36,699 nt of DNA from Candidatus Pacearchaeota archaeon CG10_big_fil_rev_8_21_14_0_10_30_48 (GTDB lineage Archaea > Nanobdellota > Nanobdellia > Pacearchaeales > GW2011-AR1): contig PFCU01000048.1 in the NCBI GenBank assembly GCA_002763155.1, positions 1 through 36,699 of the forward strand. The letters are read 5' to 3'. The stretch's first letter is position 1; each line of letters begins with the position of its first letter. Positions 2,006 through 36,515 of this stretch are shown here, one piece after another. The notes under the pieces are model-generated. The model was not told the DNA's origin, ran no database searches, and worked only from the letters and a program-made list of their open reading frames with translations. The position numbers were made by a program, and so were the translations under genes.

Positions 2006-2296
2006 TTAATCTAATTCATATTTTTCCATTAATTTTATTGCTTGATGCCATTCTCTTATCGAAGGATAATCCCTATCATTATATGCTTTTTCAAATGAAT
2101 TAACTATTTGTTGTAAATTAGAATCTCTTTCTGTTTCATCAAGTTGATTAAGTTTGTCAAAAAGTTTTCTATAGACATGATTGAATCTTGATTTGATTTC
2201 TTCTCTAGTTCTATTATATCTTATTGAAATATTAATTGTTGCGAATGTTAGACTTCCAATTATAATTAAATTAATTAAATTCTCTTGATTTTCCAT
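2006..2296 (-). CDS. hypothetical small protein with N-terminal hydrophobic helix, last gene of the dph2 operon
   Basis: Its start ATG (2296-2294) shares one nucleotide with the dph2-C stop TAA (2298-2296), a TAATG junction. NLINLIIIGSLTFATINISI looks like a TM segment. Confidence 0.5.
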   Translation of the reverse strand: MENQENLINLIIIGSLTFATINISIRYNRTREEIKSRFNHVYRKLFDKLNQLDETERDSNLQQIVNSFEKAYNDRDYPSIREWHQAIKLMEKYELD

Positions 2297-3036
2297 TATC
2301 CAAATTCCTCCAAAGCCTTTGTTGGATTGAACGCTTCATGTAAATTAATTATTGGTTTATCTGTATTTACAATGTCATCAGTTCCAATTCGAGGACAGGC
2401 AGTGTTAACCCATGATTGAATAAATGTGTAATTTTCTAAATCGTTTAAATCTAATGAATTTCCTATGAAAATATAGGCTTTTTTACCTTCTTTTTCTAAT
2501 TGTTCTTTTAGTTTTTTTGCAGAATTAAAATATTGTTGTCCTGGTTTTATTGTGACTAAAATTCCAATAGTGGTTGAATTAACATACATTTTAAGATTTC
2601 TTTTCATTCGAGTTATTTGATTTTCAATAGAGTCTTTATCTAATTCTTCTATTGAATTTGACATTGGATTGAAAGTTGTAACTGGTTTTATTCTTTGAGT
2701 TTTTGCTTGTGCTAAGAGTAATGCTTTTGGATGAAATAAACCATCTCCGATGTATAAAATTAAATCAGATTCTTCAATTATTGAATTTTCGAAAGAATTT
2801 GAGTAACAATCGCAACCGAGGATTTGGATTTTATCCGAGGTTCTTTTTGCTTTAGTTGTGTTTACTTTAATTTCTAAAATTTCTAATTGATTAATAAATT
2901 CATCTAAATCTGTAAATTGTGTTGAAGCAAAGAGTGCGAGTGATTTTGTTTTGTGTTTTTTTAAATATTCTTTTAACTTTTCTGTTAATTCAATTTTTCC
3001 ATCCCATTTTGCGTCGATAAAAACTAGTTCTGTCAT
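2296..3036 (-). CDS. dph2: 2-(3-amino-3-carboxypropyl)histidine synthase Dph2, C-terminal fragment (domains 2-3)
   Basis: Collinear with Pyrococcus-type Dph2 from about residue 88 onward. QILGCDCYS and NTACPRIG correspond to the 2nd and 3rd 4Fe-4S cysteine ligands, and LYIGDGLFHP to the FIGSGIFHP motif. Confidence 0.85.
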   Translation of the reverse strand: MTELVFIDAKWDGKIELTEKLKEYLKKHKTKSLALFASTQFTDLDEFINQLEILEIKVNTTKAKRTSDKIQILGCDCYSNSFENSIIEESDLILYIGDGLFHPKALLLAQAKTQRIKPVTTFNPMSNSIEELDKDSIENQITRMKRNLKMYVNSTTIGILVTIKPGQQYFNSAKKLKEQLEKEGKKAYIFIGNSLDLNDLENYTFIQSWVNTACPRIGTDDIVNTDKPIINLHEAFNPTKALEEFG

Positions 3037-3037
3037 T

Positions 3038-3343
3038 TTAATGATTCCTTAACTTAACTAAACCTTTTATCATTTTGGCATGTAAGCTGTTCTCATGTTC
3101 ATACCTGTTTTTTTCATCAGATGCAAGAATTTCTCTTAAAATTACTTCTTTAGTTGCAATTGAGGTTTTAATAGTATCTTTACACAATTCTAATTCTACG
3201 TCATATCCCTTAATTTCTCTTTGATATAATTGAATACCATGTTCTAAAATTATTGCTTGTTTGTAACTTTTTAGGAAAGGAGTTTCATATTCTTTAATTG
3301 CCCATTCTCTTATCTCTGTTAATAATTTTTCTCTATCTATCAT
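3038..3343 (-). CDS. hypothetical 101-aa protein inserted between the two dph2 fragments
   Basis: The track starts this ORF at TTG 3361. I prefer ATG 3343-3341, because GGAGG lies 7 nt upstream and the ATG overlaps the dph2-N stop (TAATG). Its stop TAA at 3040-3038 is followed by 1 nt and then the dph2-C ATG. Helical-looking; no similarity to Dph2 or to inteins/homing endonucleases recognised. Confidence 0.55.
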   Translation of the reverse strand: MIDREKLLTEIREWAIKEYETPFLKSYKQAIILEHGIQLYQREIKGYDVELELCKDTIKTSIATKEVILREILASDEKNRYEHENSLHAKMIKGLVKLRNH

Positions 3344-3603
3344 TACCATTCCTCCTTCCAAAATCGGTTATGTCCAAATTGAATCATTAAATCGATTTTT
3401 AGAATGTCTAAGCCAAGAGGTAAATCGCAAGCGCCGAAGCAGTTTCCTAGAAAAATAAATGCTTTTGCTTCAGTGTTTTTTTCAATGTGTTCAATAATTT
3501 CATTGGCTTGGTTTTTTAGACCATCTGGTAATTGAATTAAAACTTGTTTAGATTCGCGAGATTTTATTTCTTCAATTACTTTGGGCAGTTCTAGTTTATA
3601 CAT
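3343..3603 (-). CDS. dph2: Dph2, N-terminal fragment (domain 1)
   Basis: MYKLELPKVIEEIKSRESKQVLIQLPDGLKNQANEI...GNCFGACDLP...MIQFGHNRF matches the Dph2 N-terminus (..KRVLIQSPEGLR...YGACD...LIHLGHSYM), including the first cluster cysteine (GAC). Confidence 0.8.
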   Translation of the reverse strand: MYKLELPKVIEEIKSRESKQVLIQLPDGLKNQANEIIEHIEKNTEAKAFIFLGNCFGACDLPLGLDILKIDLMIQFGHNRFWKEEW

Positions 3604-5740: not shown

Positions 5741-6171
5741 TTAGTTTTTGTTTCAACTTGCTCATATAAATCATAAAAATCAGATTGATTAAATCTTCTT
5801 ATTGCCTCTGAAGTAAAAGAATTTCCTAAATCTCCTAAAATTCTATGCGACACTGTTTCAGTTAAACTATCAAAATATTCGTAAGCGTGTTGAATCTGGC
5901 CAGATGTTAATTGTCCTTTTCTTCCGATATTTCTCATAGCCTCTTTAATTCCTTCAACAAATAAAGAAGTATATTCTTCTGGATTAACAGATTCAAATTT
6001 AAAATCTTCAAGTCTTGAAGCAAAATACTCTGCGAAACCGGCATAAATAGGATGATGGTTATTTCTTTGAAATTCTTCTACACTAACTCCTTCAAGAGAA
6101 TGATATCTTATCTCTCTTAATTCATCTATTAATCTTTCTTTTGGTAAGGCTGTTTCGTGATAATTTTCCAT
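5737..6171 (-). CDS. hypothetical protein (144 aa)
   Basis: ORF; ATG 6171 is preferred over the GTG 6240 extension, which overlaps the upstream gene. No domain recognised. Confidence 0.45.
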   Translation of the reverse strand: MENYHETALPKERLIDELREIRYHSLEGVSVEEFQRNNHHPIYAGFAEYFASRLEDFKFESVNPEEYTSLFVEGIKEAMRNIGRKGQLTSGQIQHAYEYFDSLTETVSHRILGDLGNSFTSEAIRRFNQSDFYDLYEQVETKTN

Positions 6172-8552: not shown

Positions 8553-8737
8553 ATATTTTCATTAAATTAATTGTATAAAAAGATTATTATGATAAATTAT
8601 TTGAGTTTTATTTCTGAGGAAATTTAATTTTCTGAATACATAGTTTTATATATTAACTTTTTTATTAAATTATATCAAAATTTATTAGATTAAATTGGTT
8701 AGAGGAATATTCGCTATTTCTCAAAGATTATAATAAA

Positions 8738-10222
8738 ATGAATGCATTTGAAAAACTATTAGGTAAAGATAATCCTCTTTATTTGGCTGTTCAAGAACGA
8801 GGATTCGAAACGCCTTCGGAAATTCAAGAAAAATCAATTCCTGAAATTCTTAAGGGTAAAGACGTTATAGCTGGTGCTTCGACTGGAAGTGGGAAGACTT
8901 TGGCGTTCGCAGCAGGTTTAATAAAAAATATTTCTTCTGGAAAGGGTTTACAAGGTCTTGTTTTAACACCAACACGAGAATTAGCAGAACAAGTTTCTAA
9001 AGAATTGAAATTTTTCGCTAAACATAAAGACTTAGATGTTACAGCAGTTTATGGAGGAGTTGGAATTAATCCTCAAATAAAAAAATTAGAAAGTGTAGAA
9101 ATTGTTGTTGCGACTCCTGGAAGATTATTGGATCATATTGAAAGGAATTCTATTGATTTGGCTCGAATAAATACGCTTGTTCTTGACGAAGCAGACAGAA
9201 TGTTGGATATGGGTTTCAGAGACGATGTTAAAAAAATAATTCGTAAATGTCCTACTGAAAGGCAGTTCATGCTTTTCTCGGCGACGATTTCACCAGATGT
9301 TTTACATTTAATTAAAGATCAAATAAAAAATTATGTTGAAATTTCTGCGAAAGATTATGTTGACCCAAAAAAATTGAAACAGATTTATTACGATGTTAGG
9401 GATAATTTGAAATTTTCTTTATTAAAATATTTATTAGAAAAGGAAAAATCTGATTTGGTTATGGTTTTTTGTAATACTCGGAAGAATGTAGATTTTATCG
9501 TAAATAATTTGAGATCTTTAGGTATTGATAGTCTAGCGATTCACGGAGGGATTACTCAAGATAAGCGGAATAAAACTATGTTGGTTTTCCATTCTAAGGA
9601 AGTAAATGTTCTTGTTGCTACAGATGTTGCTGCTCGGGGTTTGCATATCGACGGAGTTAGCCATATTTATAATTATGATATTCCTGACGAGAAAAAAGAG
9701 TATATCCATCGAATTGGTAGAACTGCTCGGGCTGGAAAAGAGGGGATAGTAATAAATTTAATCTCTATGAGAGATTATGAAAATTTTAGTAGATTGCTTC
9801 CTAAAGAATTGGGAATTGTCGAAGAGAAAACTCCTTTTATTGAACAAGTTCAGGTTCGTTGGATTCCAGGAAGAGGGCGAGATTCTGGAAGAGATAAACG
9901 TTTTGGAGTTCGTGATTCTATGAGATATGAAAAAAGAGAAAGAGAAGATGGCACTCGAGATTCTGGAAGAGGAAGAATTCATAGTTCTGTTAGGAAAGAG
10001 GATTATAATTCTCCTAAAAAAAGAAGCAGACAAAAACCTAATCGAAGTGAAGGAAGTAGAAGTTCAGGATATTCAAGAAGTAAACCTTCAACTGATGGTT
10101 TTAGAGAAAAAACCGATAAGTCTGGTTTTAGGGGAAGTCGGGGCGGAAGAACTTCATCAAGAAAAAGTTCAGAAAGTAGCTCTGGTAGAGGATTTAAGAA
10201 AAAATTCTCTAAGAGATATTGA
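8738..10222 (+). CDS. DEAD-box ATP-dependent RNA helicase with about 120-aa Arg/Ser/Gly-rich C-terminal tail
   Basis: F..PS.IQ (Q motif), ASTGSGKT, PTRELA, TPGRL, DEAD, SAT, HRIGRTARAG. The tail reads GRGRDSGRDKRFG...GFRGSRGGRTSSRKSSESSSGRGF. Confidence 0.95.
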   Translation: MNAFEKLLGKDNPLYLAVQERGFETPSEIQEKSIPEILKGKDVIAGASTGSGKTLAFAAGLIKNISSGKGLQGLVLTPTRELAEQVSKELKFFAKHKDLDVTAVYGGVGINPQIKKLESVEIVVATPGRLLDHIERNSIDLARINTLVLDEADRMLDMGFRDDVKKIIRKCPTERQFMLFSATISPDVLHLIKDQIKNYVEISAKDYVDPKKLKQIYYDVRDNLKFSLLKYLLEKEKSDLVMVFCNTRKNVDFIVNNLRSLGIDSLAIHGGITQDKRNKTMLVFHSKEVNVLVATDVAARGLHIDGVSHIYNYDIPDEKKEYIHRIGRTARAGKEGIVINLISMRDYENFSRLLPKELGIVEEKTPFIEQVQVRWIPGRGRDSGRDKRFGVRDSMRYEKREREDGTRDSGRGRIHSSVRKEDYNSPKKRSRQKPNRSEGSRSSGYSRSKPSTDGFREKTDKSGFRGSRGGRTSSRKSSESSSGRGFKKKFSKRY

Positions 10223-11168
10223 TATTAATTCTTTTCTTAGAGATATATTCATAAGCGTAATATGCTGCGGTGCAACCATCTGCGACACCAGTTATTAATT
10301 GTTTGAATTCTTTATCTGTTACATCTCCGGCTGCGAAAACTCCTGCTAAATTTGTTTCAGAAGTTTTATGATTAATTATTATTTCTCCTGCTTTGTTTGT
10401 TTTTACTCCAAGAGACTTTGCTAAATCACTTAAGACGATATGCCCAATTGCAACAAAAATTCCGTCAAGTTTTAATTCTTTGGAATTTTTGTAGGGTTTA
10501 TCTAAAACAATAGAGGTTACAAATTTTTCTCCTTTAACTTGAGTTAAATTTGTATTGTTGATGATTTCTATTTTTTTGTTAGATTTTACTCTTTCAAAAT
10601 TTATGGGTTCAGGGTGAATTTCTTTCCCGCGGTAAATTATGTAAACTTTTTTTGCGTGTTCTGCTAAAACTAACGCATCTTTTGCAGCTGAATCGCTTCC
10701 ACCGATAATTGCAACAATTTTATCTTTGAATAAAGGACCATCACATAAAGCACAATAGTTTACTCCTTTGTTTTCAAGTTTTTTGCTTCCCGGAATATCT
10801 AATCTTTTCCATTTAGTTCCGGTTGCAAACAAAATTGTTTTCCCATTGTAAGTTTCTTTTTCAGTTTTAACTGAGAATTCTGATTTTGATTTTTTAATTT
10901 CTTTTACAAGTTCTTCTTTTATTGTTACTTTATCATATGAGCGCGTATGCGCTTCTATTTTTTCTGCTATTTCTGTTCCGGTTAATTTTATGAATCCAGG
11001 GTAATTTTCTACAAGATTTGTCGTCGTTATAACTCCTCCGATAGGTAATTCAGATCCATGAGAATGTCCAAGAATTAAAGTTTTCAAACCTAAACGCGCG
11101 GAATACATTCCTCCTGCTAAACCCACTCCTCCAGCTCCAATAATTATTAAGTCGTATTCGTTTTTCAT
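10209..11168 (-). CDS. trxB: thioredoxin-disulfide reductase
   Basis: YDLIIIGAGGVGLAGGMYSAR (FAD GxGxxG), redox CALCDG, IIGGSDSAAKDA (NADPH site), AAGDV. Its 3' end overlaps the helicase 3' end by 14 nt (convergent). Confidence 0.9.
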   Translation of the reverse strand: MKNEYDLIIIGAGGVGLAGGMYSARLGLKTLILGHSHGSELPIGGVITTTNLVENYPGFIKLTGTEIAEKIEAHTRSYDKVTIKEELVKEIKKSKSEFSVKTEKETYNGKTILFATGTKWKRLDIPGSKKLENKGVNYCALCDGPLFKDKIVAIIGGSDSAAKDALVLAEHAKKVYIIYRGKEIHPEPINFERVKSNKKIEIINNTNLTQVKGEKFVTSIVLDKPYKNSKELKLDGIFVAIGHIVLSDLAKSLGVKTNKAGEIIINHKTSETNLAGVFAAGDVTDKEFKQLITGVADGCTAAYYAYEYISKKRININIS

Positions 11169-11401
11169 TTTAATCCTAAAGCTTTTTTTAATTCTGATTC
11201 ATTAAATCCTACAACAATTTTTCCATCAATATCAATTACGGGAACTCCCATTTGTCCAGATTTTTTTATCATTTCTTGTGTTGATTTTTTATTTTTAGAA
11301 ACATCAACATCTTTAAAAGATATTTTTTTATCCTTAAGAAAGTCTTTTACTTTTTTACACCAAGGACATGTTGGCGTTGAGTAAACTATTATTTTTGCAA
11401 T
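11165..11401 (-). CDS. glutaredoxin-like (NrdH/YruB-type) small redox protein, CPWC motif, apparent ATT start
   Basis: Not in the supplied track. Hand translation gives IAKIIVYSTPTCPWCKKVKDFLKDKKISFKDVDVSKNKKSTQEMIKKSGQMGVPVIDIDGKIVVGFNESELKKALGLK*. The stop TGA overlaps the trxB ATG (ATGA at 11165-11168). There is an in-frame TAG at 11413-11411 and no ATG/GTG/TTG before the CPWC motif. GAGGT lies 5 nt upstream of ATT 11401-11399. Confidence 0.7.
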   Translation of the reverse strand: MAKIIVYSTPTCPWCKKVKDFLKDKKISFKDVDVSKNKKSTQEMIKKSGQMGVPVIDIDGKIVVGFNESELKKALGLK

Positions 11402-23555: not shown

Positions 23556-23942
23556 TTAAAAACTAAAAATTATCAAACCAACTATTCCTGCGATTAATGC
23601 TCCGAATAAGAAAGCTATAACAATTGCTTGAACTCTTGCATCATTTGATATTAAAGCAAGGGTTGATTTTAAGTTAGTTATTTGTTTTTTCTCCTTTAAT
23701 ATTTGTAAAAAGAAAATAGCTCCAAAAATTATTAACATAATTTCAATTGCCATAAAAGTTCCTTTAATAAAAGAGGCAATAGTTAAGATTAATGAAATTT
23801 TCCAGACAAAGAGAGCGATTAAGAGAGTTATAACATATGTCAAAGGCATTGCTTTAATCGCAGGCCATTTTCGTATAACTAATAGTAAAAGAAGTAATGC
23901 AAAAGGAAGTATTGCTAATAGAGTTAGTAACTGTTCTGCCAT
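23556..23942 (-). pseudogene. N-terminal remnant (128 aa) of an L-lactate permease (LctP family) gene
   Basis: LLAILPF...IRKWPAIKA...ALFVWK...KGTFMAIEIMLIIFGAIFFLQILKEKKQITNLKSTLALISNDARVQAIVIAFLFGALIAG is collinear with the first ~125 aa of LctP/LldP (...ISxDxRLQxLxIxFxFGAFLEGAAGFG). Similarity ends where EGAAGFG is expected. The ORF stops 2 nt from the fba stop, so there is no room for the remaining ~400 aa. Confidence 0.5.
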
Positions 23943-33850: not shown

Positions 33851-35146
33851 ATGACAAAAGAAGCATTAACCTTTATTATTTTTGGAGGAACAGGCGATTT
33901 AGCTAAGAGGAAGTTGGCTCCTGCGTTTTCAGAGCTTATTCATGAAGGAGTTGTAAAAAAAGGTTCAACTTTAATAGGAATTTCCAGAGAAAATTTAAGT
34001 GATGAGGATTATAAACATTTTTTAATTAAAAGTGTTAAAGATGTAAAGGAGAAGCACCATTTAGAAGAAATTAATATAAAACACTTGAGAATTGATTTTT
34101 CAAAATCGAAAAATATAGAACAACTTTCTGAAGCTTTACCTTCTTGTGAAGTTGAAGGATGTAATCGGGTTTATTATTTGGCGACTAGTTATAAACTATT
34201 TCCTAAAATTCTTGAGGGATTAAAAAAATTTAAATTAATTTCAAAAAAAGATATTTTCAATCGAATTGTTTTTGAGAAACCATTTGGAGAAAATTTAAAA
34301 TCGAGCGATGCTCTTGAAAAAAAAATCCATAAAATTGTTGATGAAAAAAATGTTTTTAGAATTGATCATTATTTAGGTAAAGAATCTGTTCAAAATATCA
34401 TTGCCTTAAAATTTGGAAGTAAAGGATTTCAACATTTAATAGACAACGAACATATAGAACAAATTAATGTAATTATCGATGAGACTTTAGGAGTTGGAAA
34501 TCGTCTTAGTTATTATAATGATTTTGGAGCGATTAAAGATATGATTCAAAATCATTTGTTACAATTATTAGCTTTGTTATTAATGGATAAACCTAAAGAA
34601 CTTATTTCAGAAAAAATTCACGACGAGAAAGTTAAAATATTAAAAGAGATATCCTTTTCAAATGTTGAAAATAGTTTATTAGGCCAGTATAAAAGTTATA
34701 AAGAAGAATTAAAAGAAAGAAAATTAAAAAGAAAGAAAACTGAAACTTTTGCTAAAATTGAGCTGAATTGTAATAATGAAAAATACAAAGGTGTGAAAAT
34801 ATTTTTAAGAACTGGAAAAAAATTGCCTCATAGATATGGTAAAATTATTATTGATTTTAAAAATCCACAAAATAAAATTATTATCAATTTACAACCAAAT
34901 GAAGATATAGAGATTATTATTGATGGTAAAAAACTTGATAAAATAGATCTTTGTCCGGATTGCAAATTTTCTCCTAATTCGCGTGATGCTTATGAAGTTT
35001 TGTTAAAAGAAATAATTAATGATAAAAGAAATTTATTTGTTAGAAGAGACGAAATTCATGAAGCTTGGAGAATTGTTGATGAAATAGTTAGGAAGAAAAA
35101 GGAAATTCCTTTTGTGATTTATGAAGATTGTTCTAATCCCTCATAA
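33851..35146 (+). CDS. zwf: glucose-6-phosphate 1-dehydrogenase
   Basis: IFGGTGDLAKRKLAPAF, YYLATSY, EKPFG, RIDHYLGKE (active-site signature), MIQNHLLQLLAL. Confidence 0.9.
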   Translation: MTKEALTFIIFGGTGDLAKRKLAPAFSELIHEGVVKKGSTLIGISRENLSDEDYKHFLIKSVKDVKEKHHLEEINIKHLRIDFSKSKNIEQLSEALPSCEVEGCNRVYYLATSYKLFPKILEGLKKFKLISKKDIFNRIVFEKPFGENLKSSDALEKKIHKIVDEKNVFRIDHYLGKESVQNIIALKFGSKGFQHLIDNEHIEQINVIIDETLGVGNRLSYYNDFGAIKDMIQNHLLQLLALLLMDKPKELISEKIHDEKVKILKEISFSNVENSLLGQYKSYKEELKERKLKRKKTETFAKIELNCNNEKYKGVKIFLRTGKKLPHRYGKIIIDFKNPQNKIIINLQPNEDIEIIIDGKKLDKIDLCPDCKFSPNSRDAYEVLLKEIINDKRNLFVRRDEIHEAWRIVDEIVRKKKEIPFVIYEDCSNPS

Positions 35147-35615
35147 ATTCTTCAATAATTTCCTTATTTCGTACTTCTGGATGGAATAATATTCCTTGGA
35201 ATGGTTTTGATTTGTGTTTCATTTGATTTTTATTTTTTGAATATGTAAATTCATTTGAGTTTACTAAGTAGTGATGTAAATGATATTCGTTATCGATTAA
35301 TCCTATTTGTTTATTCTTTTGGATTTTTCCGTCGTAAATTAGCCCTAAAATATGCATTCCTCCGCAAATTCCCAGTATTGGTTTGTTGAAATTTTTAATC
35401 CAATTGAAATTATCTATGTGTTTGAGAAATTCATTATCTTTCAAAGAAGTTCCGCAAATAATTATTTTTGAAGCTTTTTCTAAATCATTTTTAGTTATTT
35501 TCTTATAATGTTTTGTTTCGAATTTAATTTTGTTTTTTATTAAAATATCTTCGATAGGTTTTACAAATTCGAAATAGTGGAGTTTTTCGTTGCAGATGTT
35601 TATTATGAGAATCAT
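35133..35615 (-). CDS. class I glutamine amidotransferase-like protein (160 aa)
   Basis: PILGICGGMHILG (nucleophile-elbow Cys) and GILFHPEV (His-Glu of the triad). ATG 35615-35613 overlaps the dph6 stop TGA 35614-35612 (ATGA). The track's TTG 35648 extension is rejected. Confidence 0.7.
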   Translation of the reverse strand: MILIINICNEKLHYFEFVKPIEDILIKNKIKFETKHYKKITKNDLEKASKIIICGTSLKDNEFLKHIDNFNWIKNFNKPILGICGGMHILGLIYDGKIQKNKQIGLIDNEYHLHHYLVNSNEFTYSKNKNQMKHKSKPFQGILFHPEVRNKEIIEEFMRD

Positions 35616-36226
35616 TTTAAAGACAATTCCTTTTTGAACAAAGGACAATTTGTTACAAGAGTTTCAAACTCTCCACCTTCACCGGCAGGATTTATTTTGT
35701 ATTTTTCTTTTAGAGTAATTAATTCTTTAATTAAATTTTTATCAAGCTTTTTTCCGATATGTGAATCATTAAAGCCTTCGGCCGCAACTTTTGTTATGAT
35801 GACTTCAAATTTATTTTTTATTAATTCATTAAGTAATTCAATTTGGTTTTTTTGCCAGAGAGGGTTGAAACATTCAATGTTAAGTTTATCACAAATTTTT
35901 TGGATCCGAGATGCTTGATAGATTGATTCAACTGCTCCGGTAATTATTCCTTCAATTTTGTATTCCTTGATTGCTTTTTTGATTGCTTTTTCTAAATCTT
36001 CTAATTCTATTTCTTTTTCTCCGTTAGTTATTTGAGAAATTATTGGAATATTCATTAGTTTCGCTTGTTCTTTTGTAAGTTCTATTTTTGGGGTGTGAAA
36101 CATATAGCTGTCTTGATTTTTTGATTCAATAGAAATTAAACAGGAAATGGTATATCCTTGTTCTTTTGCCAGAGATGTTGCATAGGTTGAGTCTTTTCCG
36201 CCGGAAAATAATGTTGCTAGTTTCAT
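35612..36226 (-). CDS. dph6: diphthine-ammonia ligase (DUF71 / MJ0570-type PP-loop ATP pyrophosphatase)
   Basis: LFSGGKDSTYA (PP-loop), SYMFHTP, GEKEIELEDL, GAVESIYQASRI, NPLW, AGEGGEFETLVTNCPLFK. Collinear with archaeal MJ0570-family proteins. Confidence 0.85.
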   Translation of the reverse strand: MKLATLFSGGKDSTYATSLAKEQGYTISCLISIESKNQDSYMFHTPKIELTKEQAKLMNIPIISQITNGEKEIELEDLEKAIKKAIKEYKIEGIITGAVESIYQASRIQKICDKLNIECFNPLWQKNQIELLNELIKNKFEVIITKVAAEGFNDSHIGKKLDKNLIKELITLKEKYKINPAGEGGEFETLVTNCPLFKKELSLK

Positions 36227-36374
36227 TTATATTTAAGGAAATTTGGATTTTTAAACCAAACGTTATGTCTAAACCTATTTTTCTAATCTCAACTTTATAA
36301 TTTCTTTGCCATCAATTTTCTTTTTATATAGTTTAGTTATCATAAAACCATTTTTTAGAAAATTAGCAAGAACC

Positions 36375-36456
36375 CCATCCACTTTAGTGGATGGATGAAT
36401 TGCGTCAGTTATTTATTTCTTGAATGATTATAAACAGTGAGCTAAAAAGCTCACTG
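36375..36456 (+). repeat. two perfect hairpins upstream of tnpA (candidate IS200/IS605 left-end structures)
   Basis: Hairpin 1: CCATCCAC-TTTA-GTGGATGG at 36375-36394. Hairpin 2: CAGTGAGCT-AAAA-AGCTCACTG at 36435-36456. These are unusually GC-rich, perfect stems for this AT-rich DNA. Confidence 0.55.
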
Positions 36457-36515
36457 AAATTTTACCCGCGATTGTAAGATTTCTTTCAAATAAATAAACT
36501 TTGCGGGAGGTAAAA

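Follow-up and report, generated by a model that had tools for sequence, protein, structure and literature searches.

A 36,699-nucleotide stretch of DNA from Candidatus Pacearchaeota archaeon CG10_big_fil_rev_8_21_14_0_10_30_48 (contig PFCU01000048.1, hereafter the window) encodes the diphthine--ammonia ligase Dph6 in a gene whose stop codon overlaps the start codon of a second gene, that of a small class I glutamine amidotransferase (GATase). An initial annotation of this DNA had proposed that the GATase serves as a dedicated glutaminase subunit of Dph6, and we find this proposal supported by a linkage of the two genes that is conserved in many archaeal genomes, by natural fusions of the two proteins, and by the separation of the GATase family from GuaA-A, the glutaminase subunit of GMP synthase; from the same evidence we infer the chemistry. 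On sequence comparison we assign a probability of about 75% to the reading that the window pair is a putative two-subunit, glutamine-hydrolysing diphthine amidotransferase, and archaea with such a pair probably take the final amide nitrogen of diphthamide from glutamine, not from free ammonia. More broadly, it appears likely that a large family of dedicated class I glutaminases, recruited from a GuaA-A-like ancestor, makes Dph6 a glutamine-hydrolysing diphthine amidotransferase. In Nanoarchaeota and Thermoplasmatota the two proteins are separate and their genes translationally coupled, and in Methanothrix, Micrarchaeota and Aenigmarchaeota they form a single chain.

Diphthamide, carried on elongation factor 2 (EF-2), is a conserved feature of nearly all archaea and eukaryotes. 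The last step of its synthesis is the least understood, with respect both to the ammonia source in vivo and to the role of the essential RidA domains of eukaryotic Dph6. In PP-loop amidoligases, among them GMP synthase, NAD synthetase and asparagine synthetase B, a carboxylate or carbonyl group is adenylated and a glutaminase domain or subunit delivers the ammonia, and PP-loop adenylation chemistry is also established for the Dph6 family. Dph6 is described as a PP-loop enzyme that amidates diphthine via an adenylate (PMC3541065; PMC3585130). In the window, dph6 and the GATase gene are co-directional on the minus strand and together span positions 35133-36226, with these features:

36226..35612, minus strand: dph6, diphthine--ammonia ligase (PP-loop ATP pyrophosphatase), 204 amino acids (aa)
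36205..36188, minus strand: PP-loop motif SGGKDS, residues 8-13 of Dph6, invariant in alignments A1, A2 and A4
35680..35660, minus strand: EGGEFET motif, residues 183-189 of Dph6, with G-E-G-G-E-x-E invariant in alignments A2 and A4
35612..35615, minus strand: ATGA junction, the dph6 stop TGA (35614..35612) overlapping the GATase start ATG (35615..35613)
35615..35133, minus strand: class I GATase of the Dph6-linked family, signature FHPEVRN, 160 aa
35366..35364, minus strand: codon of the catalytic Cys84, in LGICGG, invariant in alignments A3, A5 and A4 and aligned with the nucleophile Cys of Methanocaldococcus jannaschii GuaA-A
35186..35175, minus strand: F-H145-P-E147, the triad His and Glu, invariant in alignments A3 and A5 and aligned with FHPE of GuaA-A

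The overlap of the dph6 stop with the GATase start, as first described, is confirmed by reading the minus strand, which at the junction is AAAATGATTCTC and in a longer extract around it ...AAAATGATT.... An alternative, longer open reading frame (ORF) for the GATase runs from a TTG at 35648 and would encode 171 aa; because all homologues of the window GATase begin MIL(I/L)I, we place the start at the ATG at 35615. The catalytic motifs that the initial annotation had listed, SGGKDS and EGGEFET in Dph6 and the Cys (GICGG) and His-Glu (FHPE) residues of the GATase, are intact. The upstream product is identified as Dph6 by its match to PF01902 (Diphthami_syn_2, E 3e-61), by a score above the cut-off of the archaeal equivalog model TIGR03679 Dph6_archaeal (270.3 bits versus 197.3), and by a full-length alignment at ~45% identity with the solved structures PH1257/PF0828 (E 1e-50). 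The B12-associated paralogue within the same DUF71 superfamily was rejected as an identity for this protein, since the PAB0415 family model gives only 86.6 bits against a cut-off of 250.

The downstream product scores 43.2 bits against PF00117 (gathering threshold 22.8) and belongs to a sizeable family. An exhaustive HMMER search of 1.84 billion representatives returned 211 clusters (defined at 50% identity) at E <= 1e-30 and 618 at E <= 1e-10. The best 150 matches comprised standalone proteins of ~165-220 aa, a few shorter and apparently partial ones, and five fusions to Dph6 in which the GATase is C-terminal; no other architecture was seen among these 150. Family members share a set of conserved marks, namely an N-terminal L(H/S)xxEFVxPI, a CGTSLxD where GuaA-A has SGGP, and the FHPEVRN signature. 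The window GATase lies ~18-25 aa below the family norm of 174-183 aa owing to the absence of two segments between the Cys and the His, and this shortened form is common to its closest relatives (P0001-P0003, 158-159 aa).

For all 15 family members tested, the nearest known family is GMP synthase subunit A, with PRK00758 as the top match. This raises the alternative that the window GATase is GuaA-A itself, with its PP-loop partner GuaA-B encoded elsewhere in the genome and its adjacency to dph6 devoid of meaning. GuaA-A is the best-matching known family in both sequence (including PDB matches to the M. jannaschii and Pyrococcus horikoshii proteins, 2lxn/1wl8, weak at E ~1e-6) and fold, and homologues are annotated as ‘GMP synthase’ by JGI and Prokka. 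The family scores nonetheless fall far under the equivalog cut-offs: the window GATase reaches 43 bits with NF001975/PRK00758 (cut-off 198) and 40 bits with TIGR00888 (cut-off 172), the GATase halves of fusions reach 58-97 bits with the GuaA-A model, and among the 15 members the best E-value is 5e-27 with none near 198 bits. Identity to solved GuaA-A structures is only ~25-29%, the family carries motifs of its own, and its members are covalently fused to Dph6 in several lineages and otherwise coupled to it in a conserved manner. The window contains no guaB or guaA-type ATP-pyrophosphatase gene, and tblastn with the Escherichia coli GuaA ATP-pyrophosphatase domain and GuaB gave zero matches in 1.23 Mb of sequence, made up of the window and the related loci and not of whole genomes. 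Many DPANN genomes are moreover reported to be without purine synthesis (PMC6349945). We consider the GuaA-A alternative quite improbable, and on the equivalog scores we rejected GuaA-A membership for the window GATase and for its family. Clustering with GuaA-A had been named at the outset as an outcome that would speak against a Dph6 partnership, and it did not occur. Family-model scores and Foldseek ranks were used in place of a tree against HisH, PdxT and TrpG. The set constitutes a new subunit family whose members now bear mistaken names such as ‘GMP synthase’, ‘HisH’ or ‘gamma-glutamyl-GABA hydrolase’.

To assess how widely the two genes are linked, we scanned one genome per GTDB species for the family signature [VTI][LIQ]FHPEVRN, which uncovered 574 loci with a GATase relative. 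Linkage was counted in the best 79 of these 574 loci, with Dph6 located by tblastn. In 71 of the 79, Dph6 is encoded upstream in the same orientation, at a distance of <= 20 nt in 45 loci, 21-150 nt in 5, 151-1500 nt in 18 and > 1500 nt in 3; in 2 loci a contig end left Dph6 not assessable, and in 6 there was no Dph6 in the 0.6-10 kb of upstream DNA. The adjacency, whose lack of conservation in related genomes would have spoken against a partnership, is therefore recurrent. The exact 4-nt ATGA overlap occurs in at least 31 loci of other genomes, and is probable in ~13 more where the alignment began one codon in. The loci are labelled by their submitters mostly as Pacearchaeota, Woesearchaeota and Nanoarchaeota, with about ten as Thermoplasmata/Thermoplasmatota, and the closest homologues of both window proteins are likewise from Pacearchaeota, Woesearchaeota and Nanoarchaeota metagenome-assembled genomes. 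Six independent metagenomic neighbourhoods of GATase homologues (53-63% identical) each contain the pair: four have Dph6 directly upstream with the 4-nt overlap, in one the two genes are separated by an inserted 83-aa ORF, and in one they are separated by three inserted genes on the opposite strand.

Several individual loci show variations on this arrangement. In one Pacearchaeota lineage (L001-L003), the 83-aa ORF (Pfam DUF3977, 5753-6004) between Dph6 and the GATase has a 4-nt overlap with both, and the three genes are therefore still translationally chained. A Pacearchaeota locus with three genes between Dph6 and the GATase (L004) also encodes, 2 kb downstream of the GATase, a 639-aa Cas12f1-like/TnpB protein (8569-10488) with RuvC and TNB domains. 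On one Woesearchaeota contig (L036) the Dph6-GATase pair is found twice, at 199-1391 and 10179-11371, ~10 kb apart and with identical tblastn scores; either a real duplication or a repeat introduced in assembly may explain this.

The genes surrounding the pair are far more changeable than the pair itself. Where the two genes are tightly adjacent, the largest ORFs upstream of Dph6 in 38 loci form 22 homology clusters, and the largest ORFs downstream of the GATase in 39 loci form 18. Since these surroundings have been reshuffled many times while the pair was kept, the diversity of the outer flanks argues for selection on the linkage and not merely for inherited gene order. The contrary proposal, that the adjacency is an inherited gene order without selective meaning or a chance overlap, draws on the predominance of a single large clade (Nanoarchaeota sensu GTDB) among the loci, such that the counts are not phylogenetically independent. 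We regard it as extremely unlikely, given that the pair persists between shuffled flanks, is also present in the Thermoplasmatota-labelled loci, retains its start/stop overlaps, and has been fused in unrelated lineages.

These fusions were recovered with a profile of six concatenated Dph6 and GATase pairs. Approximately 58 of the best 120 matches are single proteins of 415-470 aa containing PF01902, PF28410 and PF00117, which align with the concatenated query over 100% of its length, at 40-46% identity and in the order Dph6 then GATase. The initial annotation had suggested a survey for recurrent adjacency or fusion, and both are thus found. Named sources include Methanothrix/Methanosaeta, Micrarchaeota, Aenigmarchaeota and ‘Euryarchaeota’. 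The halves are joined by a variable, low-complexity linker of ~20-90 residues; the PP-loop and EGGE motif of Dph6, like the Cys and FHPE dyad of the GATase, are invariant in the fusion alignments. An origin of the fusions as assembly or gene-calling artefacts is made unlikely by the number of clusters, by the continuous reading frames with linkers, and by contigs of up to 3.0 Mb. Against the Dph6 equivalog cut-off of 197, the Dph6 halves from six fusions reach 262-288 bits, and the B12-type DUF71 model was rejected for them as well (PAB0415, 53-73 bits versus 250). Such fused proteins are present in databases as ‘diphthine--ammonia ligase’.

An AlphaFold2 model of one natural fusion (P0122, 421 aa), built from the alignment of 58 fusions, has a mean pLDDT of 91.7 and a pTM of 0.91, and is uncertain only in the linker at approximately residues 231-240. 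As the larger domain makes up only ~53% of the chain, a pTM of this size means that the relative placement of the domains is predicted confidently; judging from how pTM is computed, it implies a fixed arrangement of the two. In a Foldseek search the N-terminal half superimposes on PH1257/PF0828 (TMt 0.94), and the C-terminal half on the GuaA-A structures Ta0944m, PH1346 and the M. jannaschii GATase (TMt 0.72-0.76, 23-29% identity), followed by PabA/TrpG. The GATase fold is thereby confirmed on a fused homologue and not on the window protein itself. The same search found no solved chain covering both halves of P0122.

The genomic setting of some fusions could hint at a different chemistry or substrate. 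In two Methanothrix genomes (L093, 6408-9302; L095, 3501-6317), the fusion lies directly downstream (by 75 nt and 3 nt, respectively) of a ~500-aa CbiA/AAA_26/GATase_3 gene, whose product, a glutamine amidotransferase in its own right, is similar to cobyric acid synthase, a,c-diamide synthase or CfbB. The partnership could accordingly be real and yet serve another reaction, with the GATase-like protein acting as a gamma-glutamyl hydrolase/peptidase or regulatory subunit, or with the pair amidating another carboxylate, such as that of a corrinoid or an F430-type cofactor. The CbiA-like neighbour is the main hint in this direction; others are the NCBI name ‘gamma-glutamyl-gamma-aminobutyrate hydrolase family’ given to some homologues, weak Peptidase_C26 matches, and the association of one DUF71 subfamily with B12 salvage (PMC3541065). 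We nevertheless find this explanation rather unlikely. The Dph6 halves score above the cut-off of the Dph6 equivalog and below that of the B12-type model, B12 genes were not seen beside the pair in the DPANN and Thermoplasmatota loci, and the CbiA-like neighbour was not seen in the Micrarchaeota fusion locus L096 or in the fusion locus L094. The full amidotransferase triad is invariant, in keeping with hydrolysis of glutamine in the service of a synthase, which is what a GATase beside a PP-loop enzyme usually does.

If the pair is instead a glutamine-hydrolysing diphthine amidotransferase, the reaction may proceed as follows. Dph6 would adenylate the diphthine carboxylate on EF-2, the small GATase would dock on Dph6 and hydrolyse glutamine at Cys84-His145-Glu147, and the nascent ammonia would be passed from the GATase to the adenylated intermediate to yield diphthamide. 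The ATGA overlap may provide coupled and roughly equimolar synthesis of the two subunits, while Methanothrix, Micrarchaeota and Aenigmarchaeota would hold both functions in one polypeptide. We infer the formation of a complex in the split form, and likewise the glutaminase activity, the channelling of ammonia and the identity of the acceptor as diphthine on EF-2.

Several observations weigh against a glutaminase partnership of this kind. Six GATase loci are without Dph6 in the upstream DNA examined. One of them is L077, whose GATase (10001-10546) has no Dph6 within 10 kb on either side; the GATase of L042 (3198-3722) has none on the whole 13.5-kb contig. In both the triad and FHPEVRN are intact, so that some genomes evidently do without the linkage. 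In approximately 21 further loci Dph6 and the GATase are set apart by 150-4500 nt, frequently including other genes. The copies in the window are trimmed, the GATase by the ~18-25 aa described above and Dph6 by the final ~18 C-terminal residues found in most relatives. When the window pair was modelled with AlphaFold2 as a linkerless artificial concatenation, the domains folded (pLDDT 88, with the GATase part at ~66-92) and the pTM was only 0.67, a value that by the model speaks neither for nor against a complex of the trimmed window versions. Lastly, yeast Dph6 is active with ammonium in vitro (as cited in PMC3585130), so that a glutaminase is not chemically required.

A close parallel to the proposed enzyme is the two-subunit GMP synthase of archaea (M. 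jannaschii; P. horikoshii PH1346/PH1347), in which a small standalone class I GATase of ~180 aa likewise serves a separate PP-loop adenylating enzyme, and whose GuaA-A is the nearest relative of the window GATase in sequence and fold. Here, in contrast, the partner is Dph6 (DUF71) and not GuaA-B, and the proposed acceptor is a protein side chain, diphthine on EF-2, and not XMP. The fusions also differ from bacterial GuaA in having the GATase at the C-terminus, the opposite domain order. MurT/GatD, PdxS/PdxT and HisF/HisH each include a small class I GATase that is encoded beside its synthase partner and works only with that partner. Their synthase folds differ, and to our knowledge none of them acts on a protein-bound carboxylate via a PP-loop adenylate. 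The window Dph6 resembles described Dph6 enzymes (EC 6.3.1.14; yeast Dph6, PF0828, PH1257) in passing the archaeal equivalog and in its PP-loop and EGGE motifs; those enzymes are regarded as dependent on ammonia and, in the archaeal case, as having a single domain, whereas with a coupled or fused glutaminase the activity would be of the EC 6.3.5 type.

Other modules have been linked to Dph6 as sources of ammonia. Fusions of AsnB, which combines a class II glutaminase (GAT-II) with the PP-loop domain of asparagine synthase, to DUF71 were reported in Methanohalophilus, Methanosalsum and Nanosalinarum (de Crecy-Lagard et al. 2012, PMC3541065), and the same work proposed glutamine as the ammonia source for these fusions and RidA domains as the source in eukaryotes (PMC3541065). 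The AsnB-DUF71 proteins are similar to the present system in that a glutamine amidotransferase attached to Dph6 would supply ammonia. They differ in using an unrelated class II (Ntn) glutaminase fold with a second PP-loop domain, in an N-terminal position and in few genomes, whereas the present module is of class I, is C-terminal or a separate subunit, and is far more widely spread (574 loci). Eukaryotic Dph6 carries C-terminal RidA/YjgF-UK114 domains, which are proposed to be ammonia generators and are essential in yeast (PMC3585130). Like the GATase, these form an accessory module C-terminal to DUF71, and unlike it they have an imine/enamine deaminase fold and chemistry. Full-text searches of the literature found no paper that pairs a class I GATase with Dph6, and only the 2012 AsnB-fusion proposal came to light. 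The pairing of a class I GATase with Dph6 thus appears to be new, while the general idea of glutamine-derived ammonia for Dph6 has precedent. The initial description of the pair as a would-be new enzyme architecture is slightly overstated, as fused forms were already in databases and the glutamine idea dates from 2012 (PMC3541065).

A genetically hard-wired and widespread glutaminase partner offers a directly testable answer to the question of the ammonia source for a large part of the Archaea. If the proposal is true, the activity would be a new one of the EC 6.3.5 type and one of the rare instances in which a glutamine amidotransferase supplies nitrogen for amidating a protein side chain, and the in vivo nitrogen donor for diphthamide would vary by lineage among class I glutaminases (GAT-I), GAT-II, RidA and free ammonia. 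The compact Methanothrix fusions may then be a convenient system in which to follow ammonia channelling to a protein substrate. Mis-annotation of the GATase also inflates the apparent purine or histidine capacity of DPANN archaea in metabolic reconstructions. The system should be of interest to those working on diphthamide, on PP-loop amidotransferases and on DPANN annotation.

A second gene of the diphthamide pathway is found near the opposite end of the window:

2296..3036, minus strand: Dph2-like gene (diphthamide step 1), 246 aa, matching PF01866 (E 5e-36) over profile positions 73-289 of 302

The organism therefore encodes at least the first step of the pathway; genes for Dph5 and EF-2 are not in the 36.7-kb window. 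A 107-aa ORF (3038-3361, minus strand) ends one base upstream of the Dph2-like gene. DPANN archaea have been reported with Dph2 split into two genes (PMC6143161), and this ORF was considered as the missing N-terminal piece of Dph2, an identity that is unsupported since the ORF has no Pfam similarity even at E up to 5.

On the other side of the pair, the GATase gene (minus strand) and a G6PD gene (plus strand) converge, their 3' ends overlapping by 14 nt (35133-35146). The closest long contig among the relatives (L007) has the same convergent GATase/G6PD arrangement and shares with the window the downstream arrangement of G6PD and transketolase. The intergenic stretch upstream of dph6 contains, within 36370-36460, two perfect short hairpins, one of the form CCATCCACT-TT-AGTGGATGG near 36376-36396 and one of the form GTGAGCT-AAAA-AGCTCAC near 36439-36456; Rfam and tRNA scans of the window, whose G+C content is 29.7%, gave zero matches.

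The G6PD gene belongs to a dense block of sugar and pentose-phosphate genes (11821-35146). This block includes genes for transaldolase, PGI, GH130, two 6-phosphogluconolactonase-like proteins, glycosyltransferases, a ROK kinase and a DeoC aldolase, together with TIM, 6PGDH, RpiB, ribulose-5-phosphate epimerase, transketolase and G6PD. Judged by these gene assignments, it is a full oxidative and non-oxidative pentose-phosphate set; according to a review, many DPANN genomes are without these pathways (PMC6349945). Within the same interval, a 128-aa ORF (23556-23942, minus strand) matches only the first ~120 of 522 positions of the L-lactate permease profile (PF02652, E 6e-23) and is probably a gene fragment or pseudogene.

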